64,000 nt of DNA from an uncultured virus (IMG/VR IMGVR_UViG_3300011785_000002) (IMGVR_UViG_3300011785_000002:1-64000); one strand, 5' to 3'; positions 2,014-61,990 are shown, counted from the stretch's first letter. The notes: generated from the letters alone by a model not told the origin. Program-made: numbers and translations.

Positions 2014-2388
2014 TTAAGCAGATGTTACGTTAGGAGTTGTTTCCTGTTCTTTCAATTGTTGAACTTTCTCAATTAAATTATTGAGTAGTTCGTAGCGTTG
2101 TCCTTGAACAACACCACAATTGGGTTTATTTTCTGGAAAGATATTATTCAAAATATCTTCAATCAGAACCCGATGTTGGGAGGCAAGCTGCAGCATCGGC
2201 TTCCCGATTTTGTTATTGCTTTCATAATGCTTTCGCAAATATTTGAGCGTTTCCAGCTGGTTTTTTGCATCTTTCAAAATATCATGCCAGTCGTTTTTCA
2301 ATAAAAACTCACGGTCCGAAAGGACCGTGGCTATTAAAGAAATTGACGACGACTCAAGTAGAACTTGGGTTATCTTTTTCATCGACAT
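2014..2388 (-). CDS. hypothetical protein
   Basis: tightly packed minus-strand ORF. Confidence 0.6.
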   Translation of the reverse strand: MSMKKITQVLLESSSISLIATVLSDREFLLKNDWHDILKDAKNQLETLKYLRKHYESNNKIGKPMLQLASQHRVLIEDILNNIFPENKPNCGVVQGQRYELLNNLIEKVQQLKEQETTPNVTSA

Positions 2389-2614
2389 TCTCTCTTGGTT
2401 CGACCGCTGTGATATGTAAGACGGTCAGGTTTGGTTTCAAGACTGGAAATACGGTGACAATAAACTTGTCGCTCATGTTCCGTCGCATTAAGGCGTTATT
2501 TGCATCTTTCCGAATTTTTTCAGCCAACGCTTTATCAGGGGTTCCCCAGTAATAGCGATCAACCACTTCTTCAACCATCATCTGGATGACTTCATAGGTT
2601 GGGATATGTTTCAT
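2354..2614 (-). CDS. hypothetical protein
   Basis: ATGA overlap with the upstream gene. Confidence 0.65.
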   Translation of the reverse strand: MKHIPTYEVIQMMVEEVVDRYYWGTPDKALAEKIRKDANNALMRRNMSDKFIVTVFPVLKPNLTVLHITAVEPRENVDEKDNPSST

Positions 2615-3183
2615 TGATATTGAACCTCAATAATGTCGTACATGCTGAACATCTTGTTTACATGCCCATTTGGTAAATATTCCCGACCGTTCTGGTAGTA
2701 ACTTTTCATTTTGTAGTTACTATCCCCACCGGTTTGTTCCATCTGCAGCATATAAATACCACGGTTTGTATCTTCCAAAATATCCTTGACCGTGTACCAG
2801 TGGTTGGCCCGGTTACAGACACGGATGATTTTTGGGTTTGCTTTTTTTACTAAGGATAAATCTACACACATAGCTCCATGAAGATTTCCTTTGTGTGTGA
2901 TGTGGGTTGAGTTATCCAATGTGGTGACTGCAATCACATCGTTAATACAAGGTCGTGTCTGGTTTGGTAGGAAAGAACCATCTTCCTGAACCAATAAATT
3001 GGTATGTTGAATTTCTTGCTGTTTTTTATAGAAGCGTTGAAGTTTCAACAACACCCATCCTGGCTGGGCCGGTTCAATACTATTGACCTGCATAGACAGC
3101 CCAGATCCCAGTTGCACATATTGACGTGCTGGAAAACCTGCTGCGTTTGTTTCTGAATTTTTTAACAGTGCTGATAGTGTCAT
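2611..3183 (-). CDS. hypothetical protein with two copies of a small repeated beta-rich domain (family B)
   Basis: ATGA overlaps; two segments ending EDG..NDVIAV and YYQNG..YDIIEV. Confidence 0.7.
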   Translation of the reverse strand: MTLSALLKNSETNAAGFPARQYVQLGSGLSMQVNSIEPAQPGWVLLKLQRFYKKQQEIQHTNLLVQEDGSFLPNQTRPCINDVIAVTTLDNSTHITHKGNLHGAMCVDLSLVKKANPKIIRVCNRANHWYTVKDILEDTNRGIYMLQMEQTGGDSNYKMKSYYQNGREYLPNGHVNKMFSMYDIIEVQYQ

Positions 3184-8254: not shown

Positions 8255-8731
8255 CTAAAATTTAATCAGGTTTAATTGATAAGGAAGGAACTCGTCATCG
8301 TCTATGATCAGGTTCCCGTTCGGGGCGATTGTTACCAATGTATTTAGTGGTAGAGAGAGATAGTGACTCCCATCATCATATTCCAGGTCTAAACAACCTT
8401 CTCCTTCATCATATTGTTTTAATGAGAAAGTTTGACCTGATCCATTGTGGATAAAACAGCTTGTTTTTTCGTACACCTCGGAAAGCGTAACCGTTGTTCG
8501 TTTAGAAAAACTTAAAATGTCACGTGGGTCTTCAACATTTTTACCCCATTGGTACATTCCATTTGGTCTGTAAAAAAGAGGTTTTTTAGTTTCTACAAAC
8601 TTAACGTGGATTCGATATTCCAGATCCTCATGGTCTGGGTCATAAATAATCTGGTCGATAGTTAGATGTGCACCGTTTCGGAGAACAACAGTGTTCCCGG
8701 GTTTGGCCTGGGTTAAATCGATTTGTTCCAT
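8255..8731 (-). CDS. hypothetical protein with N-terminal family-B domain
   Basis: GNTVVLRNG...KFVE...Y..NG...DPRDI; likely start MEQIDL after AGGA. Confidence 0.7.
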   Translation of the reverse strand: MEQIDLTQAKPGNTVVLRNGAHLTIDQIIYDPDHEDLEYRIHVKFVETKKPLFYRPNGMYQWGKNVEDPRDILSFSKRTTVTLSEVYEKTSCFIHNGSGQTFSLKQYDEGEGCLDLEYDDGSHYLSLPLNTLVTIAPNGNLIIDDDEFLPYQLNLIKF

Positions 8732-10021: not shown

Positions 10022-10621
10022 CTAATCAATTTTGATTCCCATAAGCACCCCACGTGCTTTATAGTTTTCTCCACCTATGTTGCTAAAATCAACGAAAGCC
10101 ATTGGTGGTTGTTCTTGAACAGTTGTTAGCTTTACCAGAGATAGTTCTTTTTTAACCCCGATAATTTTTGCTATTTTTTGATAGTCAGCCATATAGTCCC
10201 AGTTGAAACATATCTGTTTATCAATAAAAACAGGAGCTTCATTTTTAGGAATTACTCGTTTCCAGTCTGGGTATTTGGCATTAATCAATTGGAATGTTTG
10301 AGAATTGGGCGTCCCCATTATTTGGAGAGTACATTGCTTGGTATCATGTGTTACAAGCACATTGTATTTAGTTAAATCAAGAGATCTTGTGTTTTTAAAC
10401 AAAAAATCAATCGAGTCTTTTGGAATAATAATGCTTGGAAGATCATCATCCAGGTTGGTTACTTCGCAGTAAAACAGGCGGTGACCATCTGTGGAAACAA
10501 TATGGCCTTTATCAATTGCTACGCCTTCGAGATAAAAACGAATGTCTTTATGTGCGGTGCATAATAAGGCTGCTTTTAAAGGGGCTGCAGGTATTTCAAA
10601 TTGGTAATGAGACATAATCAA
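10022..10621 (-). CDS. DNA polymerase III beta-clamp-like protein (partial, ~200 aa)
   Basis: DIRFYLEGV..VSTDGHRL, IIIPK, KYPDWKRVIP and FN.DY motifs of the DnaN middle/C-terminal domains. Confidence 0.8.
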   Translation of the reverse strand: MIMSHYQFEIPAAPLKAALLCTAHKDIRFYLEGVAIDKGHIVSTDGHRLFYCEVTNLDDDLPSIIIPKDSIDFLFKNTRSLDLTKYNVLVTHDTKQCTLQIMGTPNSQTFQLINAKYPDWKRVIPKNEAPVFIDKQICFNWDYMADYQKIAKIIGVKKELSLVKLTTVQEQPPMAFVDFSNIGGENYKARGVLMGIKID

Positions 10622-14637: not shown

Positions 14638-14858
14638 AACTACTCCTGCATTAAATGCTTTACATTTGGTGATGGAAACTCACTTTTTGATAATAATTTA
14701 TGAGCGTAACGATTGCAATAGGTGATACACAATTTGCAGTCATTATTTGCATCGTGGACAACGTTGAGGACACACTTAGGGTGTTTTTACGATCACAGAC
14801 ACGGTTTCGGACAAAATCAGGGACACGGTTTTTGACACAATCCCTTTAAAAACAATGC

Positions 14859-14991
14859 TGTAACTCTTTTGGACATAATATTTTTTTTTATTTACTGCGA
14901 GTAGTATTTTTATCATAATTACATAACTTTACAATACTAACAACTTCCACTCGTACAAATAAAATTAAAAATTATGTCCAAAAGAGTTACA
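14859..14991. repeat. long inverted repeat (21-bp perfect core, imperfect extension inward)
   Basis: TGTAACTCTTTTGGACATAAT (14859-14879) / ATTATGTCCAAAAGAGTTACA (14971-14991). Confidence 0.95.
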
Positions 14992-15037
14992 ACCTTGAAA
15001 AATAAAGCAAAATGGTTTTTTGCAGCTCGTTAAGCAC

Positions 15038-15095
15038 GTAACTGGTTTGTAAAAATCGAATACTTTTTAATCAATTTCACTTACAAGCCAGTTAC
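15038..15095. repeat. 15-bp inverted repeat, 1 mismatch
   Basis: GTAACTGGTTTGTAA / TTACAAGCCAGTTAC. Confidence 0.85.
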
Positions 15096-15151
15096 AAAAG
15101 ACCAAAATCGCAAAATTTCTAAATTCGAAAAACCCTGAAAATTTGGGGACC

Positions 15152-15469
15152 TTATAACTTTTGCGTATATAGACCCAGAATACGATGTTCAATTTCGATA
15201 AAACCCTGTGGTTTAATCTTATTTTTCCATGTAAAAACTAAGCTCTCACCTGTTGACACTTTCACATTTAACGAGTAGCGATTTACAACCCCAGGCCGGT
15301 ATCGGAAATATTCCCCAACCCGAACCCTGGCTCCAACATCACTCCCATCCTCAAAACTGATTTGGAGCATGTCCGTGAAGCCACGAAGACTGACCCCCGA
15401 CCCAGGCAAGACCCCAGACAACAACCCAGCTTCAATATTATTCTTCAGACTTTCAATTTTACTGTTCAT
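15152..15469 (-). CDS. hypothetical protein
   Basis: 105-aa ORF. Confidence 0.55.
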   Translation of the reverse strand: MNSKIESLKNNIEAGLLSGVLPGSGVSLRGFTDMLQISFEDGSDVGARVRVGEYFRYRPGVVNRYSLNVKVSTGESLVFTWKNKIKPQGFIEIEHRILGLYTQKL

Positions 15470-15488
15470 ATAACACCCAAATTTCCAT

Positions 15489-15520
15489 AAAAAAGCCGTA
15501 ATTCACCACGAACTACGGCG
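15489..15520 (-). terminator. intrinsic terminator
   Basis: minus strand GCCGTAGTTC-..-GAATTACGGC followed by a T run. Confidence 0.7.
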
Positions 15521-15572
15521 CAAATAATATTAAATATGGCCACAGTTCGACCCGAACCACGGCGCAAATCAG

Positions 15573-16070
15573 TTAGAAATTGATTTCAGTTTCAATTTCT
15601 AACGTGTTCCAGTTGATCAAATGGCCACTTTCCAAGGCATCAATCAGAGCCATAGCGTGGTTCAGAGCCAGGATTGTGTCCGAGATTATGCCCTGGAATG
15701 GGTCAGAAGCCTGAATTGTGTCACCGGCTTTGATTAAATCACGGACTTTGCCCTGGATCTGGTCACGGATAAAGTCCCGAGTAGTGGCTGTGAGCAGGTC
15801 AGCGTCCGTGAAACCACCCTTGTAAAAGACACTGTTCGGTAAATGTTCTTTGAACCAGATTCTCAAAAGAGAACAAGCGCTCAAAACCGGCATGGTTGTG
15901 TCCCATTGCTTTAAATCATGCGTAGGGAAATCACGGACAAAGTTATTGACCCAGCCTGAGTCCTGGACACGATGATTATTCATCGCGAAATGGAGGCAAC
16001 GCGCCGTTTCTGGCAATTGGACAAGAATTTCTTTAGCGATCATGGTTTTTATTCCTAAATTGAATTTCAA
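15573..16070 (-). CDS. hypothetical protein
   Basis: 165-aa ORF; likely start MIAKE after AGGA. Confidence 0.65.
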   Translation of the reverse strand: MKFNLGIKTMIAKEILVQLPETARCLHFAMNNHRVQDSGWVNNFVRDFPTHDLKQWDTTMPVLSACSLLRIWFKEHLPNSVFYKGGFTDADLLTATTRDFIRDQIQGKVRDLIKAGDTIQASDPFQGIISDTILALNHAMALIDALESGHLINWNTLEIETEINF

Positions 16071-16152
16071 ATTTCAAAAAAACGGCCTCGCGTTTCTAGC
16101 TGGATGCAGCCAGAAAGCTCGCCTTAATAACGCGTTTCTAATACACGTGCAG

Positions 16153-16235
16153 GTGTACGTACACGCACACGCACACACATGTGCGTATGTGTACGCACGC
16201 ATACGCGCGCATACACATACGCGCATATACGCGCG
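16153..16235. repeat. 83-bp perfectly alternating purine/pyrimidine tract (potential Z-DNA)
   Basis: GTGTACGTACACGCAC...ATATACGCGCG; alternation checked base by base. Confidence 0.95.
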
Positions 16236-16243
16236 ATGATCTT

Positions 16244-16317
16244 TGTGGATAACTTTGTGGATAACTCTGTGGATAAGTCGGAAACCCTGTGGATAACTCA
16301 GGGTTCCCTGTGGATAA
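16244..16317 (-). promoter_or_regulatory. array of five perfect DnaA boxes (TTATCCACA on the minus strand)
   Basis: TGTGGATAA at 16244, 16256, 16268, 16288 and 16309. Confidence 0.9.
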
Positions 16318-16325
16318 GTCCGGAC

Positions 16326-16341
16326 TGTTCCACGTGGAACA
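16326..16341. promoter_or_regulatory. parS: parS centromere-like site
   Basis: perfect palindrome TGTTCCACGTGGAACA matching the chromosomal ParB-binding consensus, flanked by TCCGGA on both sides. Confidence 0.85.
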
Positions 16342-16367
16342 ATCCGGATTGTGACATGGGCTAAGGC

Positions 16368-17015
16368 TTAGGCCACTTTCTGAGCCTGAGCCGCTTGCAA
16401 TTTTGCAATGTGGGCCTCAAGTAGTGCCTGGACTTTTAAAGCATTATCCAAGTCAAGCTTGGAAATTTCATCAGCCAATAAAAAAGCCGTGTCATTATCA
16501 GTAACAATGGCCGGCGCGTTGTCCATGTCGTTGCCAGTGATCGACTCAGGCGCATCACCTGAGGTCTTCATCTGGTCAAAGCCATAGGCAATTGACACGG
16601 TATTAAAATCAACTTGATCATGAGCATACTGGCTTAAGATCCCGTCTTTTAGCACCTGAGCACTGGCTACAATGGCCTTGATTTTTTTCTTGTCATCTGC
16701 TGTTAGCTCAGTCATTGTCTTAGCTAGTTTTTTATACATAGCCAAGTATTGTGCATAGTTGTCATGCTTACATGCTTTAGCTGCCGAATCCTGATTGTGA
16801 ATTGATAAAGCCTTGTTAAGCAAGGCGTCTTGTAAGCCATCCATAACAAAAAAGTCCAGTGTAGCGTTGGTTTTTTTAGCCTTTACCGCTTTTAGCACCT
16901 GATTTAAGACTTGTGCATTTTTGCCTAAGTTTACGATTTTAGAAACGAAAGTTTCCGCTTTGATTGCTTTTGACACGTTGTCTGCATTGAACGCTGTTAG
17001 CTTTAAAGTTTTCAT
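16368..17015 (-). CDS. Ala/Lys-rich hypothetical protein (candidate first-expressed gene)
   Basis: 215-aa ORF, AAGGA RBS, alone downstream of a sigma70-type promoter. Confidence 0.75.
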   Translation of the reverse strand: MKTLKLTAFNADNVSKAIKAETFVSKIVNLGKNAQVLNQVLKAVKAKKTNATLDFFVMDGLQDALLNKALSIHNQDSAAKACKHDNYAQYLAMYKKLAKTMTELTADDKKKIKAIVASAQVLKDGILSQYAHDQVDFNTVSIAYGFDQMKTSGDAPESITGNDMDNAPAIVTDNDTAFLLADEISKLDLDNALKVQALLEAHIAKLQAAQAQKVA

Positions 17016-17484
17016 GATGTTTTTTCCTTTTGGAGTGGATGCAATCGCTATGATATGGATTGCATCAGATAATTTAAAACGTGATTTTGATTGACAGATT
17101 TAATAGCCGATTACTTATTTCATCTTTACATTTTACTTGTTTAAGGTATAGGTAATTGCAAAATGCAATTAGACTGATAACACTTAAATCCAAGGCGGTG
17201 CAACCGTTTCCGCTTCGGCTTCTGTCTTTGTCGGGTATCACGCGTTACGCCTGATTTTCGCCTAAAATTTGAATCTATACACTAGCCGGAACTAGGCAAA
17301 GGTCAAATTTTGGGAAGACTAACCCTATCCAATATCTTCCATTGGAATTGTAGGCGCAAGGCACTACTTGGGTGTAATTGTCCATTGATCATACCCCCAC
17401 CATAAGGCATAATCGTACCGGACGCTAAATAATAGCGCGTATATAATAAGCCTGTCTTTTTGCTCCTTTCCTTTCGTTATAGCC

Positions 17485-17513
17485 ATTATGTTTCAGCACA
17501 ATATCAGAGTAAA
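17485..17513 (-). promoter_or_regulatory. sigma70-type early promoter
   Basis: TTTACT-17 bp-CATAAT with AT-rich upstream sequence. Confidence 0.7.
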
Positions 17514-17698
17514 GCGTTTACTTCATCTTTTTTAAAAATAATTTGTAAGTCTATGATTTTACAGTAAATTTAGTTGAAAATAATTAAGGGTGGATAGGTT
17601 TTTTTCCCTTTTCACTATGCAAAAATGGATACAGGGGTCCAGACCTCGCTATAAAAAATTTTAGTGATTTTTCAAGAGACAAGTAAATCCTCTCCCAC

Positions 17699-17800
17699 CC
17701 GAACCGTGACTGTGACCATATCTGTAACCTTAACCGTGACTGTAACCAGGATAAGAAATAGGGCTGTAACCATGACTGTAACCGCGACTGAACCTGTGAC
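17699..17800. repeat. in-phase degenerate hexamer array (YGTRAC-like, 17 units)
   Basis: CGTGAC TGTGAC CATATC TGTAAC CTTAAC CGTGAC TGTAAC ... TGTAAC CATGAC TGTAAC CGCGAC TGAACC TGTGAC. Confidence 0.85.
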
Positions 17801-17806
17801 AAGGAC

Positions 17807-17837
17807 GAAAAAAACCCCAGCCAAGGCCGGGGTCTTT
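17807..17837 (-). terminator. intrinsic terminator ending the primase operon
   Basis: ACCCCGGCC-..-GGCTGGGGT followed by a T run on the minus strand. Confidence 0.8.
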
Positions 17838-17852
17838 ATCAATAACAATAAA

Positions 17853-18248
17853 TTAGCTAAAACCAACACCATCAACAGGACCCATATCTTCCATCAAGGT
17901 CACGTCCGATTGTTTGTCTGCAGGCCGTGTCAATACCACTAAAGGTGTCGGCAATGCGTAAGATAACTCATGCGGTAGCATGTCGTGCTCCACCAAATGG
18001 TCCACAACTTCACCTAACTGGGTAGAATGTAGACAAAGAACACGCAAATCTTGCGCTTCAGGATCTGTTTGCCCCAAAGGACGAAGCATTCCCTGAATAT
18101 TTTCATCCTCTTTCAGTGGGTATAGATTCATGGCCACAATACGAAGTGCGGAAATAACCACCCAATCATAACCAACAGGCACCCGGGTCCAGTCAAATTG
18201 TGCCGTGTGAGAAACCGACATTTCACCCAAATCTTCAATTTTTAACAT
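17853..18248 (-). CDS. hypothetical protein
   Basis: packed ORF in the primase operon. Confidence 0.6.
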   Translation of the reverse strand: MLKIEDLGEMSVSHTAQFDWTRVPVGYDWVVISALRIVAMNLYPLKEDENIQGMLRPLGQTDPEAQDLRVLCLHSTQLGEVVDHLVEHDMLPHELSYALPTPLVVLTRPADKQSDVTLMEDMGPVDGVGFS

Positions 18249-18517: not shown

Positions 18518-18854
18518 GTTTTTCTCCTTGCTTATCCAAGCTAATTTGTTGTTTTACTGCAAAAGTCAGCATGTTAAAGGACATGTTGATCTTCTTATTG
18601 GCTTTGCGCTGCTCCTGATGCAACCGGTAGGATTTATCAATTAACGGTTCTGGCTTGTTCTGAACCAAAAAATCTTCCAGACGCATAGGGGCCTCCTCAA
18701 AAATCGGAGTGCCACGTAACTTCATAAGAGCCAGGTCCTTTTTCATAAGTTGCTGCAGTTCCTGGCGTTCAAAATCTTCATAAGCTTGCATTTTCTTCTC
18801 CTTGTCTCTGATTAAATCGATAAACCACTTTTCACACGAATGCCGCGATACCAA
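18501..18854 (-). CDS. hypothetical protein
   Basis: packed ORF; likely start MQAYE after AAGGAG. Confidence 0.6.
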   Translation of the reverse strand: MVSRHSCEKWFIDLIRDKEKKMQAYEDFERQELQQLMKKDLALMKLRGTPIFEEAPMRLEDFLVQNKPEPLIDKSYRLHQEQRKANKKINMSFNMLTFAVKQQISLDKQGEKHGIMD

Positions 18855-21478
18855 TGGTTAATATCTCCATCTTTACTAAAGCGTTCGATACCACGTGCTT
18901 TAATAATTTCTTCCAGCATGTGACGGAATTCCTGCATTTCTACAGTTCTTCGACTACCAATACCCAAACGCATGAATTGACGGAATTGGATATGTAAATC
19001 CAGTTCAGTACATTCAAACATTTCATTTTGTTTATTGGCCGGCATGAACTGACGAATTTCCAGACTTGGATCTTTCATCAGGAAGAACAAAGCCGGGTTG
19101 GTCTGGAACGCCAAGGTTGCCATTAACTTTTTATGTGACTTCGGCAGTGTAAAGCCACGTGCCATAGCGAGACGATGCCCTGCTTCAAGTGCCCATGCAA
19201 AGATTGCTTCACGCTCTTGGCTAATGATTTTTTTCGCCAGATCAACATCGATATTTTCAGGCATCACCTGCTGGTCAAAATGGAAAAATAACCAACGGCG
19301 AGTAAAGCCTTCAGAAGTATCATGCGTTTTCGGCAAGTGGTTTGAAGCTGCCCAGTGTGCTGCAGTCGGACGCATCGTGAAGGCTTCACGGTACAGTGGA
19401 TAAACTGCTCGGGGTGAACCGTCAATCACTGATTTAAATACATCACCTTCGATATATTTACGTTCACTTAACTCGCCTACAATGTTGATATTCTTACGAT
19501 GCAGACTGACAACTAAACGGTTTTCTCCCATTTTGTCAAAGCTAACACTGGACTTGGCTTCGTCTGGGAACAGACTACCGATGATTTCGAGCAATACAGA
19601 TTTACCTGATTGAGCCAGTCCGTAGAGGAGGAATGCTCGTTGATATTTAGTGGCACGACCCATAAAGCTAACATAAAGAGCTTCTTGAAGTGCATCACGA
19701 CGCTGCTGATAATCATCATTGTGACCCCAACTATCATGTAAAAATTTATCGAAAAGTGGCATTTTACCTGCCAGTTCCGGAACATAACGGTACGGAAGAA
19801 CATAGGTTGAACCGTATTCTTTCGAGTGTGGAATGAAACTCAAAGGTGAAGACATGCTTGCCTTGAACTGTTTCACAGCATTTTCCTGTGCCTGTTCAAT
19901 TTCAAACGCGGTCCACATTCCCATCGTAACGTTCGGGTGCTGCAAAATCTGATCCTTGATGCGTTGGATCTCTTTTTCCATCGTGTGGTTATCGCCCACC
20001 AGTTTCGCAGCTGGATTTTCTACAACCATACCGTTCGCTACGTTTACATACGCATCACTGTTTGCAATAAGTCCTTGATTACACAGGATTAATAGCTGAC
20101 GATACACACCTTCAATATCTGAGTTGCGTTTCATAATATCGAGCTGTGAAAAGTTCATGGCAATGAACTGTTTCAGTTCAACCGATTCAAACATCACCCA
20201 ATGTGAACCCATGAATTTGTACATGGTGCCCGAGTCAACGATTACCGGGTGCATACTTTCCAGTAAATCTTTTGCTGCCAAAGCAACTTCGGTATGTGTG
20301 TTCAGACTGATTTCAGTTGCGCCTTTACCATCTTCGTCACCACCAACAGAAGTCGTGGTGTTAATTTCATCCCGTTTTTTCGCTGCTTGTGCTTTAAGAT
20401 CCGCAACTTTAATAGGTAAACCAGACTTGTCCACAATCTTGGTCAAGATAAAGGTTTCACGCATCTTGTCCTGTTTTTTGATCTGGGCAACGCGAAGTAA
20501 AACTTCATCCACCAGTTCCAGAGCTTTGTCTTCTGGTGTGTTATCCGCTTCAACATTGTAGTAACTGAGGATACGTTCATAGGACCATTCTTCATTTACT
20601 TCAGTCAGGCCAAGCATACGAACTTCTTCTTCACTCAGACCTTCATCCCAACCAGAAGGAAGTGCAACTTTACGTTTATTTAAAGTTTGCTGGACAAACT
20701 TGATCAGGTTACGGACGTGTTTGTCCATATCCATTGGATCGCCTTCAACCTGTTCAGTGAATCCATCATTAATTGCGTGAAGATGATCAATAGCTTGACG
20801 AACAGAGATTTTGCCTTCTACAATCTGGTGTGCAAGCAGACCATTTTTCTGGGTAATCGACGAATCACGGAAACCTGCAGGGATGTGTTCTACCAGTGAA
20901 CCTACACCTTTATTGGAAATGTCATAACCTTTAAGCACACAAAGATTACGGATACGGTCTTCAAGATCATCCGGAATCATCGGTAATTCATCAAGAACTT
21001 CCCAAAGATTAGTATTTGACGTATATGGGCGATTGGTATCCGGGTGAATAGATGGAGGCAAAACAATTTGCTGACCAGTACATAGATACTCGACCAAAGT
21101 ACCTTTTTGTTTGTCAATAATTTTGAAAGCTTTTGGAACTTTTGGGTTATATTTGAATGCAAACACCATCCCCTTGGCACCAATACGAGTCCATTTGTCG
21201 TAGCCAGGAGGAAGCATTTCCAGAATTGCAGCAATTAAATCATCGTCTGCATAGTCAATATCAAGTGCGCCAATACGTGACTGTTTACCCAACACCAGAC
21301 CGATGTTGTGTTCCCCAGGAAGTGAGCGCCAGTTTTCATAAACATCCTCTGGTACTTGGTATTCAGAAAAATCAGACCAAGCGTTGGTTAAAGGACGTTT
21401 TGACTTTTCACGAAGCGGAATAACTGACATTCCTTTTTCGTGGTAGTAAGGGGCGAATTGAGCGAAAATACTTGCCAT
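18812..21478 (-). CDS. bifunctional primase-polymerase / D5-like SF3 helicase
   Basis: N-terminal Prim-Pol motifs (VIPL..K.P, NIGL..G...LDID, Q.V.PPS.HP); C-terminal GLAQSGKS Walker A, ASN.LP...GF.RR. Confidence 0.9.
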   Translation of the reverse strand: MASIFAQFAPYYHEKGMSVIPLREKSKRPLTNAWSDFSEYQVPEDVYENWRSLPGEHNIGLVLGKQSRIGALDIDYADDDLIAAILEMLPPGYDKWTRIGAKGMVFAFKYNPKVPKAFKIIDKQKGTLVEYLCTGQQIVLPPSIHPDTNRPYTSNTNLWEVLDELPMIPDDLEDRIRNLCVLKGYDISNKGVGSLVEHIPAGFRDSSITQKNGLLAHQIVEGKISVRQAIDHLHAINDGFTEQVEGDPMDMDKHVRNLIKFVQQTLNKRKVALPSGWDEGLSEEEVRMLGLTEVNEEWSYERILSYYNVEADNTPEDKALELVDEVLLRVAQIKKQDKMRETFILTKIVDKSGLPIKVADLKAQAAKKRDEINTTTSVGGDEDGKGATEISLNTHTEVALAAKDLLESMHPVIVDSGTMYKFMGSHWVMFESVELKQFIAMNFSQLDIMKRNSDIEGVYRQLLILCNQGLIANSDAYVNVANGMVVENPAAKLVGDNHTMEKEIQRIKDQILQHPNVTMGMWTAFEIEQAQENAVKQFKASMSSPLSFIPHSKEYGSTYVLPYRYVPELAGKMPLFDKFLHDSWGHNDDYQQRRDALQEALYVSFMGRATKYQRAFLLYGLAQSGKSVLLEIIGSLFPDEAKSSVSFDKMGENRLVVSLHRKNINIVGELSERKYIEGDVFKSVIDGSPRAVYPLYREAFTMRPTAAHWAASNHLPKTHDTSEGFTRRWLFFHFDQQVMPENIDVDLAKKIISQEREAIFAWALEAGHRLAMARGFTLPKSHKKLMATLAFQTNPALFFLMKDPSLEIRQFMPANKQNEMFECTELDLHIQFRQFMRLGIGSRRTVEMQEFRHMLEEIIKARGIERFSKDGDINHWYRGIRVKSGLSI

Positions 21479-42214: not shown

Positions 42215-45200
42215 TGGGTGGAAAAAAAGGTAAATCCCCTACCATGACGGCAGACAACCTGTTCAACCAAGATACAGTAGAGTTAGGTCTTGCCATTTGT
42301 GAAGGAACCATCCGGGGTTTAACCAACGGATTGAAGACAATGTATGTCGGAGGTACACCGGTAGAATCAGAGACTGGGGAATTAAACTTTCAGGACTTAG
42401 GGATCAGTATTAAGCAAGGCTACTTTGATGATCAACCGACTCGTTATTTAATGGGGGGTGAAGCTTCAATTTTAAACACTGCAAGTAGTGTGTCTTTACC
42501 GGCCGATATTACTCGAACGTTTACTACACCGACCAGTTTTCGGGGTACGTTGTCTTTTATAGATATACGCCTTCTTGTTCAAGCACTTTATGCTGGAGAC
42601 AGCGGTGGAAACATATATGAAAGTTCAGTTCTTTTAGAAGTAAAATATAGAAAAACAGGTGACACTGAATGGCGTTACGTTTTGAAGGGAACTCAAGAAA
42701 TGATTGAGTACCGAAAACGTGTAAATACATTACGTCAAGAGGCTGCAGACCGTGGTTTGAATTTTGATTTAATGTCGGATGAAGAACAGCTAGAGTTTGA
42801 ATTATCTGTTCTAAAAACCATGAAGAATATCACCACTGATGATATTGCAGCTTTTAACGAAGGTATGATCGATTACACCTCAACCAATTTTAGAGGTGGA
42901 CGTGTCTACTCCAACGGGGCTGTTCTACTACCTACCAGCCAGAAGGTTAAGACAAGGGGGTTTGTTCAAAAACACTCTATCCTTGCTGATTACCAGAAGC
43001 AAGATCCAGATTTGACCCTTGAACAATTACAGTATGAATATATGGCCCTGCATGGTAAAACCACCAGTGGTTATATTCATGAAGTTTGTATCCCTATTTT
43101 TGACAACGAAGATGACACCCACGACTGGGAAATTCAGATTACACGTAAAAGTAAAGAACTGACTGCTGACGAGAAAAAATTCTCTGGTAAAGAGATAGTT
43201 ATTGAAAGCATAGCATTAGTCACCGAGCAAGAGCGTTCTTATTCCAAAGTGGCCACTTGTCAGGTTGTTGCCCAACACACAGATCGTTTTAACCAGATTC
43301 CTGATTTCTCTGGGGAGTTCGATGGTTTCATGTGTGAAGTACCAACCAATTATAATCCAGATGCCAGAACCTGGGCTGGGGTTTGGGATGGACGCTTTAA
43401 ACGAGCGTGGACAAACAATAATGCTTTGATTTTACGTGAATTAATCATGAACAGGGACTGGGGAAAGCGAAGTGTTGAACCCATGATTACGATGGATAAC
43501 ACTTCTCTATTCGAAGCAATCCAGTGGTGTGATGAAGAAATAAAAGATATTTCTGGGGAAATGAAGCCAAGACATACCTTTAATATGGTGGTTCAAGATC
43601 AACAAAACCTGGATGACTTTATTACGCTTGTAGCAGGTACTTTTCATTCTGCAGTTCGTGAAGTAATGGGCGTCAACTACATTTTTATTGATCGACCTAA
43701 AACACCTAAATTTTTTGTGTGTCCAGAAACTATTTTGCAGACCGATTTTCATTTCACAATGATGGATTTGCAAACCCAATATAATGAAATTAAGGTTAGT
43801 TTCCCGAACGCGGACAACAACTACACTGAGGATCGTCGTCGCGTGATTGACGAGCCAAGTATTGTACGCAACGGTTACATTCCTTATTCTTTTCAAGCCA
43901 CCGGTGTGACCAACTTGACTGAAGCTTTACGTCAGGCTGCGTATATCCTATACACCAACCGTGACGAGAATATTTTTGCGACCTATTCACAGCCACGTTT
44001 GGGCCACTTGGTGAATTTATATGACACCTTTTACCTTGCGTGTAAAAACAATGGTTGGGGGAATAGCGCACGTATCGCTGGATATGATCAGAGGACAGGA
44101 ATTATCACTTTACGTGACCCTATCCTGGAACTGCCTAGTTCTGAAAGCTACTCAATTACGTATCACAAACCTGCAGGTTTAGAAACAATCCAGGTTAAAA
44201 CCATAGATGGTCTTCGTCTTCAAGTGGAAGGTGCTTATATAGATTTTGCCAAGCATGGTTACTTGGTAGAAGAAGCGCCTATCATCATCGCCGGTGGTAG
44301 TTATGGTGCACCTAAAACTTTCCGTGTGATTGAAATGAATCAGACAGATTCAGACAACGTGGCTCAAGGTGAATTATTTACCTTTAAAACTTGTATTGTC
44401 TCTACTTCAAAATACGCCAAGTTGGATAATATTTGGGATGAAGAAAACCTGGATTTAGGACTGGAAAAAGAACTGGTAATCTATAAACGTGAAAAAACAC
44501 CAAGCAAACCTAAAGATGTTCGCTTGTACGCTATGGATAAAGGTAATGCTGAAGGCCAGCTGGTTTATAAGCTAATTTTTGAGGCGGATATACAGGCACC
44601 TGAGTATGAAGTTATCTGGGTAAATGAAGACTCTGGTGAGATTCGCCAGACATATATTCAAAATACTGAAGATCTACTGGCTCCGGCCTTTGACTACAAT
44701 ATTCCTGTCAGCATTAAAATAACCCCAATAAACTACGCTGGTGAACGGATGGATTCTGTAATTATGCAGAAAGTAGCACCTTCCTCTTTTATCCAGACTC
44801 AAATACCTGGTTTGGTTAGCATGACCTATGATGATTCCTTGGGGGGTGTGACCTTTACATGGGATAGTGATTCTGAAGACATTTTCCCATACAATCATAT
44901 CCTGGTTGATTATCGAAGCCCATCGAATATTAAAACAGGGATCAGGTTAGCAAAAGACCTTCGAAGCTTCACTGTTCCATTTGGAGGTTCTGGGGATTAT
45001 GTTGTTCAAATCAGCTACGTAGTCACCCCAGTGGAAGGTTTAGGTTATTCGGGTGAAGTTGCTGGACCAGTTTGGACTTATTCTTTAGACGCTACAGAAA
45101 TTGAATCCAAGCTAAATATCCCTACAAACCTGGATTTGAACATGGTAAAAACTATGGTGGTTTCATCCTCGTCTAATCAAGGGGAAATTATCCCTGCTCC

Positions 45201-58339: not shown

Positions 58340-60901
58340 CTAAGCTGCTTTTCTTTCAGTCAAATAGTTCAAAATAAGATCCCTTTCCTCACTACTCGCT
58401 CGTTCTTCCCAACGTTCTTTAGGAATACACGGAACACCTTTCTGAATCTCATGCAATTCAATTTGTCCATAAGGAGCCTGAACAGGGTCGAATGGTTGGA
58501 AGGTGTAACCGACGGCTACTGAACTATCGATTTTCACGTTCGGGAACAGGTCACTGTCCTGAATCATTTCGTTATACAGGAAATCACAAAATGCTGCAAC
58601 TTCTTGTTTTTTAACGGAAAATAATAATTCATCATGAATAAGGAGCATGAAACGTGCACTAAACCCTTGTTCCTGAGCATTATTCACAGTACGGATAATG
58701 GTTCGTTTCGCCAAAGCAGCACACATCCCTTGGATTGAGAAGTTCACAGCCTGGTTCAAAGAACGACGATGAATACGACGCATTGCTTCACGTGCAAAGC
58801 TCATGATTGCGTCTGACTCATAAGACATAAATACCTCTGTCATCAAATCCGACCATTCCTGGGTTGCTTCAAAACGTACCCGAGTGTGATGGTCACCAAG
58901 CTTGATAAACCCACGGTTTTTGACCTGTTCCTGGACACCTAAACGCCAGGATTCCGCAACTGGGAATTCACTTGTGTAGCCTTTTACAGCTTCTGCAGTA
59001 CGGTCCATATTCCAGCCCATTTCGTCAGCGATTGTACCTAACCAACCAGAATACCAATAACCGAAGTTTGCCACTTTACCCAGCACAGTACGGTAGAATT
59101 TTTTATCTGGCAATTCAGAAAATTCTTCAACGGACATACCCAAGATACCGGCAGCTGCCTTACTATGTAAATCTTTATGCGGTCGTTGCGAATAGGCTGC
59201 CAACATTGCCGGATCCTGGCTGTTTGCTGCCACACCTACCAATTCAATAGCAGACCAATCGGCTGAAACAATAACACTATCCTCGTCATCCGCCAGGAAG
59301 AAGCCACGGACGAAGACCGAATCACCACGCTTGGCCAACTGTTGTCCGTTTGGTGACGAACAACTGGTTCGACGTGTCGCCAGCATGGACGTCATTTGTG
59401 GGTGCATCAACCCTGTTTCTGGATCTACCAAACATAGGTATGGCGTGATATACAGCTTGAACGCTTGTTCTGCAGAAGCAATTTTCGCGTAAGCTTCCAA
59501 TAACGGATGCCCTTCCTCAAACTCTGCCAACATCGCTGCCCGGGCATCTTTATCCGACTGGATCTTGCCACCGGTTGCTTTGCAAGGTAAATCAAAAATC
59601 ACAAACATTACATAGCGCATGGCCATGTAGTGGTTAATTGATAACTGAGCACTTGGTTTAGCGTTCATACCTAGACGGTCTTCAATCCATGCGTTGCTTG
59701 GGGCACACTTCACCTGTGTAGCGATTGAATAGCTATCCAGATTATCTGGTGATTCAATCCACTGCTTAAATAGACGATAGTATTTTTCATGAGAAGCTGG
59801 TTTATACCATTTCTCGTACTTTAATAACTTTTCGTGCATTGGAGGCATTTCATCTGGGAAATGTTCCCGGACTGCTTTTTTAAGATCCAGCAAGGATTCC
59901 GTAAAGGACTCACGCATCGTATCACGACGCATTAAAATTTCCTTTCGGTTGACTCGCATACCGCCAATGGTGGTTTCAGCAAAGATCCGGGTGATTGGAT
60001 TCTCTGTTGATAAATAGGTGCCAATCACATCTGGATTTACTTGCTGTAAGTATTGGTAGACACGGAAGAATAAACGATAGGCCCAAATAGCATCGTCGGC
60101 ACCATATTCCAGCACTTGTGCAGCTGTTAATGCTTCCATGTCACATTCATCACCAAGCGTGTCTTTAAACTCAGCCATTTGGTAACCGAACCAGGATTTG
60201 ACTGCTTTCTTTAAACCATAACCGTATGAAATATCTTTCACGATCCCTTCATAGGAATGTGTCGCTTTCCCAGACTTTGCACAGAACTTGCCTAAGACTT
60301 CTTCCTGTTTAAAGGTGAGTTTACCTTGCTCATAATTTGAAAACTCACGTTCAATTTCCGGAATCAGTGGTTTAATTCCGCGAAGGACCGCAGCCTGTAA
60401 ATTATTCTTGTGATATTCATCTGGATTATACGCAGTCACACATAGCTGCATAGAACACAAAGTATTCGGCAACACCTGATCGTAACTACCACGATGCACA
60501 CAATATTCATAAGGTACGTTATGAATGATCAACGTATCGTTATGTCGCTTGGCTGTTTCCATCCATTTAAGCAGGTAGGAAATATCAATGGTGTTTTGTG
60601 TGTCGGCATGGCCGAAGTTAATGTAGAAAGCTTTATCAGGATGTGTTTTACCGAAGTAAAAAGATGCACCTGTAATTTTGGTGCGTTTGAAATCAAACAA
60701 TAACTTTTTACCATGGGAGAAGCCTTCATCGTCCACCTTCATCAATTTCTTGATGCCTTCGTGAGCGTCTCTTTGTGAGGTCTCTATGTCGTAACCTATT
60801 AAATTGTTTGGTGTTTTTACTTGTTCCATGAAAAAAACATCCCAATCCTGTATGTTATTTCGGTCAACAAGTATGTTCTGCACCGGTGCGTGGTAGTCCA
60901 A
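58340..60901 (-). CDS. polA: DNA polymerase family A with 3'-5' exonuclease
   Basis: DIET exo motif, DWSAIEL (A), K.ANFG..Y (B, Phe at the E. coli 762-equivalent), IHDEL (C); likely TTG start 60901 after AAGGAG. Confidence 0.93.
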   Translation of the reverse strand: MDYHAPVQNILVDRNNIQDWDVFFMEQVKTPNNLIGYDIETSQRDAHEGIKKLMKVDDEGFSHGKKLLFDFKRTKITGASFYFGKTHPDKAFYINFGHADTQNTIDISYLLKWMETAKRHNDTLIIHNVPYEYCVHRGSYDQVLPNTLCSMQLCVTAYNPDEYHKNNLQAAVLRGIKPLIPEIEREFSNYEQGKLTFKQEEVLGKFCAKSGKATHSYEGIVKDISYGYGLKKAVKSWFGYQMAEFKDTLGDECDMEALTAAQVLEYGADDAIWAYRLFFRVYQYLQQVNPDVIGTYLSTENPITRIFAETTIGGMRVNRKEILMRRDTMRESFTESLLDLKKAVREHFPDEMPPMHEKLLKYEKWYKPASHEKYYRLFKQWIESPDNLDSYSIATQVKCAPSNAWIEDRLGMNAKPSAQLSINHYMAMRYVMFVIFDLPCKATGGKIQSDKDARAAMLAEFEEGHPLLEAYAKIASAEQAFKLYITPYLCLVDPETGLMHPQMTSMLATRRTSCSSPNGQQLAKRGDSVFVRGFFLADDEDSVIVSADWSAIELVGVAANSQDPAMLAAYSQRPHKDLHSKAAAGILGMSVEEFSELPDKKFYRTVLGKVANFGYWYSGWLGTIADEMGWNMDRTAEAVKGYTSEFPVAESWRLGVQEQVKNRGFIKLGDHHTRVRFEATQEWSDLMTEVFMSYESDAIMSFAREAMRRIHRRSLNQAVNFSIQGMCAALAKRTIIRTVNNAQEQGFSARFMLLIHDELLFSVKKQEVAAFCDFLYNEMIQDSDLFPNVKIDSSVAVGYTFQPFDPVQAPYGQIELHEIQKGVPCIPKERWEERASSEERDLILNYLTERKAA

Positions 60902-60972
60902 TTCATAACTCCTTAAGTTATTTTTGGTATAGAAAAAGGACAGTAGCAATTGCCCTGTCCGTTGTTACATCT

Positions 60973-61833: not shown

Positions 61834-61909
61834 TGGTGCTCAAAGTAGGACTCAAACCTACGACCTGATGCTTACAAGGCAACTGCTCTATCAACTGAGC
61901 TATTCGAGC
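61834..61909 (-). tRNA. tRNA-Thr(UGU)
   Basis: 76-nt cloverleaf, anticodon loop CTTGTAA, encoded CCA. Confidence 0.92.
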
Positions 61910-61914
61910 TAAAA

Positions 61915-61990
61915 TGGCTGCCTCAACACGGTTCGAACGTGTGACCAACGGATTAACAGTCCGGTGCTCTACCAACTGAGCTATGAAGCA
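61915..61990 (-). tRNA. tRNA-Asn(GUU)
   Basis: 76-nt cloverleaf, loop CTGTTAA, TTCGAA T-loop, encoded CCA. Confidence 0.95.

Follow-up and report, generated by a model that had tools for sequence, protein, structure and literature searches.

Why does the genome of an apparently virulent phage that encodes neither DnaA nor ParB carry, side by side, an array of perfect DnaA boxes and a perfect parS site? The question is raised by IMG/VR record IMGVR_UViG_3300011785_000002, an uncultured viral genome of 76,342 bp (40.7% GC). Its first 64 kb will be called the window, and all coordinates are counted from its first letter. The start of the record is repeated in its last ~75 bases, an assembly overlap. 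The element in question lies inside a 324-bp gap that runs from the stop codon of an open reading frame (ORF) at 16368-17015 (minus strand; P0001) to the ATG of another at 15573-16043 (minus strand; P0004). Read along the plus strand, the gap holds a terminator-like hairpin, a long tract of alternating purines and pyrimidines, five DnaA boxes, and parS.

An initial annotation had likened the tract, boxes, and parS to a host chromosome origin and offered three possible functions: a decoy for host DnaA and ParB, a host-initiated origin combined with ParB-based positioning of the genome, or a protein-bound roadblock in two-step DNA injection close to the genome end. The tract, the boxes, the palindrome, and the non-coding setting are exactly as it described them. 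I will argue that the element is very probably a selected cluster of sites for host DnaA and host ParB and, with a good deal less assurance, that the cluster is a place at which these proteins dock the phage chromosome.

The DnaA Boxes, the parS Site, and the Alternating Tract

The sequence TGTGGATAA occurs five times on the plus strand of the gap, at 16244..16252, 16256..16264, 16268..16276, 16288..16296, and 16309..16317 (start-to-start spacings of 12, 12, 20, and 21). All five are perfect, matching the consensus TTATCCACA at 9 of 9 positions, and, co-oriented within 74 bp (16244-16317), they constitute a DnaA-box cluster. Box 1 stands 8 bp from the alternating tract, box 2 is 3 bp from both box 1 and box 3, box 4 falls in the loop formed by an inverted repeat with 10-bp arms (16280-16289 / 16299-16308), and box 5 is 8 bp from parS; boxes 3 to 5 are separated by two helical turns. 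The repeat unit that contains box 5 and the one that contains parS have flanks that are 75% identical. One further copy of TGTGGATAA occurs in the window, isolated at 8446, and the total of six compares with an expectation of 0.84, a count that was reached in none of 100 shuffles. Relaxing the consensus adds only a single site in the whole genome.

The parS site (TGTTCCACGTGGAACA, 16326..16341) is a perfect 16-bp palindrome of the chromosomal type, the only copy in the genome, and it is embedded in an extended 18+18-nt palindrome that spans 30 nt (16319-16348). It is identical, letter for letter, to parS2 and parS3 of Pseudomonas aeruginosa PAO1 as these are listed in Table 1 of PMC4368675. 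What differs is the setting: here the site is carried by a phage, it is single, and no parAB operon is nearby. Of 301 genomes sampled from one gammaproteobacterial order, 161 contain the exact 16-mer, typically once or twice each; the order, which may not be that of the host, was that of a record titled 'uncultured Pseudomonadales', and a reversed control pattern gave zero in every genome row. Within the sampled order the 16-mer is very often paired, the two copies lying 630-645 bp apart, which suggests a conserved two-site centromere arrangement. A search of the literature on parS in Acinetobacter found nothing specific.

The alternating tract (16153..16235) runs for 83 nt without a single interruption and is internally repetitive and partly palindromic. 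Elsewhere in the 76,342-bp genome no alternating run is longer than 18 nt. When the genome was shuffled 200 times, the longest run was 16.5 nt on average and at no time more than 25 nt. The tract has 41 pyrimidine-purine steps, of which 32 are of the CG or CA/TG kind (14 CG and 18 CA/TG) and the other 9 are TA, and its GC content is 57%. Such long, unbroken alternation, rich in CG and CA/TG steps, is the mark of Z-DNA-prone sequence, and the same tract in minus-strand RNA folds to a hairpin of ~29 bp. As DNA it might adopt the Z form or extrude a cruciform, and as part of an early transcript it might fold into a long hairpin. It is the least explained part of the element.

Host Proteins as the Probable Readers of the Sites

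The phage encodes its own primase-helicase and PolA, as had been claimed: a scan against Pfam and PHROG finds a PrimPol-helicase at 18812-21478 and a family-A polymerase at 58340-60949, along with a further replication set made up of a flap nuclease, an SbcCD-like pair, a clamp-like protein, a helicase, and ribonucleotide reductase. Equally sound was the claim that parA/parB, dnaA, and integrase genes are absent. No ParB, ParA, DnaA, integrase, or repressor family turned up among the 75 ORFs scanned against Pfam, and a six-frame search of the whole record, in which control genomes did match, gave no match to ParB_N or Bac_DnaA_C. Since the phage lacks these domains, the sites, if they are used, must be read by host proteins, as the initial annotation had supposed.

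Judged by the primase (63-64% identity), the closest cultured phages are EAb13, TCUP2199, fJoAci01/04, and Mystique, all virulent siphoviruses of Acinetobacter baumannii; EAb13 has been described as virulent (PMC10508131). By these resemblances the phage is to be counted as a virulent siphovirus related to Acinetobacter phage EAb13.

Similar Arrangements in Bacteria and Viruses

The element is not a copy of an origin in any of the 185,579 species genomes searched, all of which lack the exact 40-base sequence that joins box 5 to parS. A DnaA box no more than 30 bp upstream of this parS is found in 33 of the same genomes, spread over many phyla, and at those 33 loci the boxes in the vicinity number three or fewer and alternating runs do not go beyond 16 nt. 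The term "origin mimic" is a fair picture of the element, provided that no copy of an origin is meant. The element has in common with bacterial oriC and datA-type clusters several close, co-oriented consensus boxes, and differs from them in lacking an AT-rich unwinding element, the context of a dnaA gene, and a switch in skew.

In IMG/VR, the pattern of box plus parS was found on one other contig, L169 (IMGVR_UViG_3300047275_000471), a high-GC sequence of 18.5 kb. At L169:280-460, ~300 bp from a contig end, three perfect parS sites are interleaved with three perfect DnaA boxes inside a single intergenic gap. The contig is an actinophage-like fragment (it encodes a WhiB-like regulator and a helicase) unrelated to the phage considered here, and no ParB or DnaA domain was found in its 18.5 kb. 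I take it to be a case of convergence on parS and DnaA boxes.

Three or more co-oriented perfect boxes occur in at least 121 IMG/VR loci (L046-L166), with 3-11 boxes each and up to 11 boxes in ~850 bp among the loci listed, many of them on small contigs (4-7 kb). Among the matches listed, a parS-like site accompanies 1 of the 121, an alternating run of more than 19 nt accompanies none of them, and 19 of 80 triple-box loci are cut by the contig end. Two Autographiviridae, Klebsiella phage vB_KpnP_ZK1 (L167:1-200) and Shigella phage A7 (L168:1-160), have arrays of TTATCCACA at the start of their records, in ~21-bp repeat units beside a DNA packaging gene, and the unit in ZK1 shares box flanks with boxes 4 and 5 here. 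These viral arrays are like the present one in that at least three co-oriented perfect boxes occupy a short non-coding stretch.

A literature search for lytic phages with host parS and DnaA boxes together yielded no report, only phi29 and plasmid-prophage cases. What is new here is the joining, in one probable terminal region of a phage, of two known kinds of site for host factors.

Position in a Probable Terminal Repeat

The element probably lies in a direct terminal repeat. EAb13 has direct terminal repeats of 2,177 bp, mapped by PhageTerm (PMC10508131), and in the annotation of its record the repeat begins ~360 bp past the primase gene. Both boundaries of that repeat have counterparts here. 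At the left boundary, non-coding DNA of EAb13 aligns to 17560-17700 of the present phage and to its IMG/VR relative L007, and at the right boundary the alignment extends over 14740-15030, inverted arms included. This homology, together with the synteny of P0001 and EAb13 CDS0003, places the repeat from ~17632 down to ~14896 (minus strand; 2,737 bp), so that P0001, P0004, and an ORF of 105 aa would lie in it along with the element. The midpoint of the predicted repeat, 16264, falls inside the box array, and the virion DNA would carry the element twice, 1.26-1.48 kb from either end. The placement lends support to the part of the initial annotation's third alternative that put the element close to the genome end.

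The right boundary (14896) is flanked by perfect 20-bp inverted repeat arms (14860-14879 / 14971-14990), and the same layout of arms is found in EAb13, L007, and this phage, with different sequences. Just outside the left boundary (after 17633) lies a conserved non-coding motif (17644..17662, minus strand) that is near-identical in L007 and recognizable in EAb13, across the annotated start of its repeat. Further upstream is an array of GGTTACAG-type short repeats (17706..17790, minus strand), at whose position EAb13 has a different short-repeat array. The GGTTACAG-type array and the 20-bp inverted repeat are likely to be packaging or cleavage signals. Sequencing runs that contain related DNA are stored as contigs only and termini were placed by homology; contig depths over the region showed no consistent twofold step, and I draw no conclusion from them.

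The Intergenic Gap and Its Neighbors

P0001 (16368..17015, minus strand), the first gene of the predicted repeat, encodes a protein of 215 aa to which no function has been assigned and which is found family-wide. Its homologues in the distant relatives L005, L006, and L010 are 41-42% identical and that in L007 is 25% identical, and EAb13 CDS0003, which lies inside the EAb13 terminal repeat, is a distant homologue (24-25% identity) with common motifs. P0001 matches 109 metagenomic clusters, 108 of which have no Pfam family and none of which is named, and its matches in the Atlas are viral hypotheticals only. Pfam recognizes no DNA-binding or initiator domain in the family. An AlphaFold model built on a 5-sequence alignment had a mean pLDDT of 43.6, too low to be usable. 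I also considered whether P0001 has a variable C-terminal DNA-binding domain that changes along with the repeats, but dropped the idea, since the family aligns over its full length.

P0004 (15573..16043, minus strand; 156 aa), the next gene in the predicted repeat, belongs to no PHROG or Pfam family, and its Atlas matches point to mutually inconsistent families. Peptide patterns found no relatives of P0001 or P0004 in IMG/VR. A search with the family alignment recovered two known loci in IMG/VR, and in metagenome contigs one new locus of 1.5 kb and a copy of a known one. A search with a 65-aa ORF that runs over the element gave no match. Translations of the element, compared to a representative protein library, matched P0117 (an ORF on a related contig, considered below) and three long repetitive proteins, the latter judged to be compositional matches.

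The terminator-like hairpin (16076..16123, minus strand), recognized from sequence and fold, lies just before P0004, and seven consecutive T follow it on the transcribed strand. It is not listed by a simple terminator scan, and scans for promoters and terminators gave no signal above shuffles. The minus-strand transcript of the gap folds with an energy of -131.3 kcal/mol (z = -7.8), a value not equaled in 100 shuffles. No Rfam family was found at threshold, and below it the only matches were microRNA models from animals, themselves derived from simple repeats of a similar kind. The 600 bp around the element contain 12 families of direct repeats and 22 inverted pairs.

Elsewhere in the genome, a 199-aa protein (10022-10621, minus strand) matches a PHROG labelled RusA-like resolvase and also, just below the Pfam threshold, the central domain of the DNA polymerase III beta clamp; it may be sliding-clamp-like. 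Adjacent genes for tRNA-Thr (TGT) and tRNA-Asn (GTT) lie at 61834-61990 of the window (minus strand), EAb13 being reported with one tRNA-Asn. A protein of 750 aa with a CotH kinase domain, unusual for such a phage, is encoded beyond the window at L004:1464-3716 (minus strand), which is 65464-67716 of the genome.

What the Element May Do

The function to which I give first place, tentatively and at somewhat less than even confidence, is that of a docking module for host DnaA and ParB that tethers and positions the phage chromosome. Host DnaA would fill the five co-oriented boxes and host ParB would load at the adjacent parS, giving DnaA and ParB nucleoprotein complexes side by side on the phage DNA. 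By way of host ParABS and DnaA, the first-entering end would be held and the genome kept at origin-like positions in the cell, and it would be partitioned if infection should stall. The DnaA array, 8 bp from parS, might be both an anchor and a one-sided barrier to sliding ParB clamps, and the alternating tract would be a structural flank, retained when the cassette of protein sites is exchanged.

Support for docking comes from the exactness of the sites, far beyond chance, from the lack of ParB and DnaA in the phage, from a parS identical to two sites of P. aeruginosa and common in the sampled order, from cultured relatives that infect Acinetobacter baumannii, from the probable place in a terminal repeat, from the persistence of the element in close relatives, and from the convergent case of L169. 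A comparable role has been put forward, as a proposal only, for the DnaA boxes in the terminal repeat of T5. I rank it first because ParB recruitment recurs at non-homologous sites in the family, because phi29 provides a precedent, and because it calls for no fixed distance from the genome end. The recurrence is seen in G004 (IMGVR_UViG_3300010372_000004), a member of the family with two high-quality parS sites, 564 bp apart, within two adjacent early genes (L170:1600-2500, that is, G004:C1:24099-24999). The homologues of these genes here (2354-3183) are without parS. The sites in G004 would then be an independent gain at a different place, and ParB recruitment looks to have been selected in this phage family.

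The precedent is the virulent phage phi29, for which PMC2731898 describes five parS sites bound by the host protein Spo0J, as well as Spo0A boxes, and entrapment in the spore by way of the segregation machinery. According to that account, phi29 resembles the present phage in being virulent, in having a linear genome, and in carrying host-type parS with no ParB of its own, along with sites for a second master DNA-binding protein of the host. It differs in that its five parS sites are dispersed, its other sites are Spo0A boxes, its genome is protein-primed, and its host, Bacillus subtilis, is a sporulating Gram-positive. The present phage joins one parS directly to an array of five DnaA boxes and an alternating tract, the whole probably within a terminal repeat, and its host is presumably a non-sporulating gammaproteobacterium. 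Of the second alternative of the initial annotation, then, the part that concerns positioning by ParB has gained from phi29, which the annotation does not mention, and from G004.

The initial annotation had also proposed that the three motifs be sought together in related phages, and here the results are divided. A megablast comparison of 15000-18000 to phage records found no match, and a sensitive blastn search with the gap found other DnaA-box arrays only. Close relatives, at ~80-95% DNA identity, are present in wastewater runs of several studies. One contig from wastewater, X9, spans 15573-16348 unbroken and so includes the whole element. On another related contig, the ORF P0117 translates the tract, followed by FVDN, SVDN, PVDN, and a terminal CG-stop; read at the protein level only, it is compatible with four or more boxes, spaced 12, 21, and 22 apart, one tandem box fewer than here.

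The remaining comparisons count against docking. Contigs X1 and X3, from two runs of other studies, align to 16235, after which 287 other letters replace 16236-16613 before the alignment resumes; the exchange takes out the box and parS cassette together with the last part of P0001 (its 3' end) and keeps the tract, whose edge is the breakpoint. In the distant relatives L005, L006, and L007 and the fragment L010 (70-71% primase identity), boxes, parS, and alternating run are all absent within 10 kb. Their slots share one layout: the P0001 homologue is followed by a GC-rich palindrome, whose half-site recurs nearby in direct copies, then by an AT-rich hairpin that has a T-run, and then by the next gene (L005:9041-9240, L006:15467-15684, L007:14975-15184, L010:815-1020). 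The repeat motif of the slot differs from lineage to lineage and has no known host-protein match, and these repeats could be sites for a phage protein. The number of half-site copies is unequal between the near-identical L006 and L010. Of 10 family records searched, a parS-like 14-mer is present in two (this phage and G004) and a cluster of at least three DnaA boxes in one (this phage only), so the module must be dispensable for the family.

Further objections concern the mechanism. The host, the binding, and the termini have all been deduced from sequence, and a host ParB of matching specificity is putative. These phages are not known to have a non-lytic or carrier state, and the use to which phi29 puts its sites, entrapment in the spore, does not apply as such. 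ParB clamps, moreover, can slide off the end of an open linear DNA. Conservation of the element is patchy, and it has precedents in phi29 and T5.

Next in likelihood, though rather unlikely, is that the element is instead an injection stop of the T5 type. Host DnaA associated with the membrane, perhaps along with ParB, would bind the array 1.3 kb into the genome and halt transfer once the promoter region and the P0001 gene had entered, and a pre-early product would then lift the block. The terminal repeat of T5 is described as containing DnaA boxes in pairs 3 bp apart, and a model has been proposed in which membrane DnaA halts the entry of DNA (10.1101/866236); the initial annotation was accurate in mentioning boxes and repeats in this region. 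The likeness is considerable, insofar as T5 is described there: an untranslated stretch rich in repeats and palindromes, consensus DnaA boxes that are often 3 bp apart (as are boxes 1, 2, and 3 here, amid direct and inverted repeats), and a long direct terminal repeat, which in the present phage is predicted. The element would, moreover, lie in such a repeat directly after its first gene, and the terminator-like hairpin that comes after the element would keep early transcription from going beyond P0001. The arrays beside the packaging gene at the record starts of the two Autographiviridae, and the triple-box loci cut by contig ends, also speak for this reading.

On the other side, T5 as described has ~8 boxes, grouped as four pairs and linked to inverted repeats of 131 bp; its terminal repeat measures 10 kb, it lacks parS, it has the genes A1 and A2, and its two-step transfer is proven, whereas the present phage has five co-oriented boxes, a parS, an 83-nt tract, and a predicted repeat of 2.7 kb. 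No relatives of the A1/A2 pre-early genes were seen, the ORFs of the predicted repeat matching no PHROG or Pfam family. The relatives' slot has no DnaA boxes. The parS sites of G004, ~8.6 kb beyond the predicted repeat, imply that ParB recruitment is not tied to the position of a stop. Even in T5 the role of DnaA is only a proposal, and the mechanism of the entry stop was still called poorly understood in 2026 (PMC13250531).

A phage origin that makes use of host DnaA seems quite unlikely. A DnaA filament would open or distort the tract, and the phage's PrimPol-helicase would load there. The tract is on the 5' side of the boxes in their TGTGGATAA orientation, the polarity that the oriC of E. 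coli shows between its unwinding element and box R1. In the relatives, the slot consists of iteron-like repeats followed by an AT-rich hairpin, the classic layout of an origin; the primase-helicase gene is 2.5 kb upstream; and the cassette swap takes with it the repeats and the 3' part of the neighboring gene, as do the ori/initiator modules of lambdoid phages. Here, however, no AT-rich unwinding element stands beside the boxes, their flanks being the 57% GC tract and parS. Nor does strand composition switch at the site: cumulative GC skew reaches its extremes at 45075 and 76125 and shows none around 16.2 kb, although this is a weak test, because phage skew mostly follows transcription. In the P0001 family no domain for DNA binding or initiation can be recognized and the model of P0001 is unusable, the C-terminus of the primase is not unusually divergent among the relatives, and parS has no part in initiation. 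The origin proposed in the second alternative of the initial annotation is weak.

I consider it very unlikely that the element is a decoy, in which the boxes and parS, multiplied with the phage DNA, would draw DnaA and ParB away from the host chromosome and so stop host initiation and segregation. The number of sites would climb with phage replication, the phage's own enzymes need neither protein, and five high-affinity boxes in 74 bp resemble the DnaA-titrating clusters of bacterial chromosomes. But a decoy has no need of a fixed position, a palindromic context, or an alternating tract, and yet the architecture of the slot is conserved. One parS alone would absorb little ParB, the module is missing from most relatives, and the benefit to a fast lytic phage with its own genes for replication and nucleotides is unclear.

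Finally, it is most improbable that the motifs are incidental to a site for a phage protein (in packaging or regulation) or to an RNA element between early cistrons (a long hairpin, or a signal for RNase III or termination), for although this reading would explain why the gap transcript folds far better than shuffles and why other palindromes, hairpins, and repeats occupy the same place in relatives, and although box 5 and parS share flanks, five 9/9 matches to DnaA boxes and one 16/16 match to parS cannot be by-products of a hairpin, two other phages (L169 and G004) carry parS independently, and Rfam offers no family at threshold.

Biological Significance

A wider proposal, speculative and to my mind rather doubtful, is that the terminal repeats of virulent phages with linear genomes are a recurrent landing pad for proteins of the host origin region, T5 having DnaA boxes, phi29 parS, and the present phage the two together. 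In the present phage, bridging by ParB and oligomerization of DnaA at both copies of the repeat would synapse and anchor the genome ends. Such a complex might gate the entry of DNA, shield the ends, promote recombination from repeat to repeat, and partition stalled genomes; the recombination-prone tract would aid recombination, and its edge would be a natural breakpoint for swaps. If this were true, the element would belong to a kind of host-dependent cis-element so far unrecognized in lytic phages of Gram-negative bacteria.

More narrowly, if host DnaA and ParB do bind the element, this would be the first virulent phage outside the phi29 group to enlist the host centromere protein, and the first to combine that protein with DnaA boxes of the T5 type. 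The module is small (~200 bp), comes with natural cassette swaps and copy-number variants, and is found in relatives of Acinetobacter phages that are candidates for therapy. It therefore makes testable what sites for host proteins do in the terminal repeats of phages, whether in entry, the handling of ends, or persistence, and may bear on how phages behave in slow-growing cells, a matter of relevance to phage therapy.

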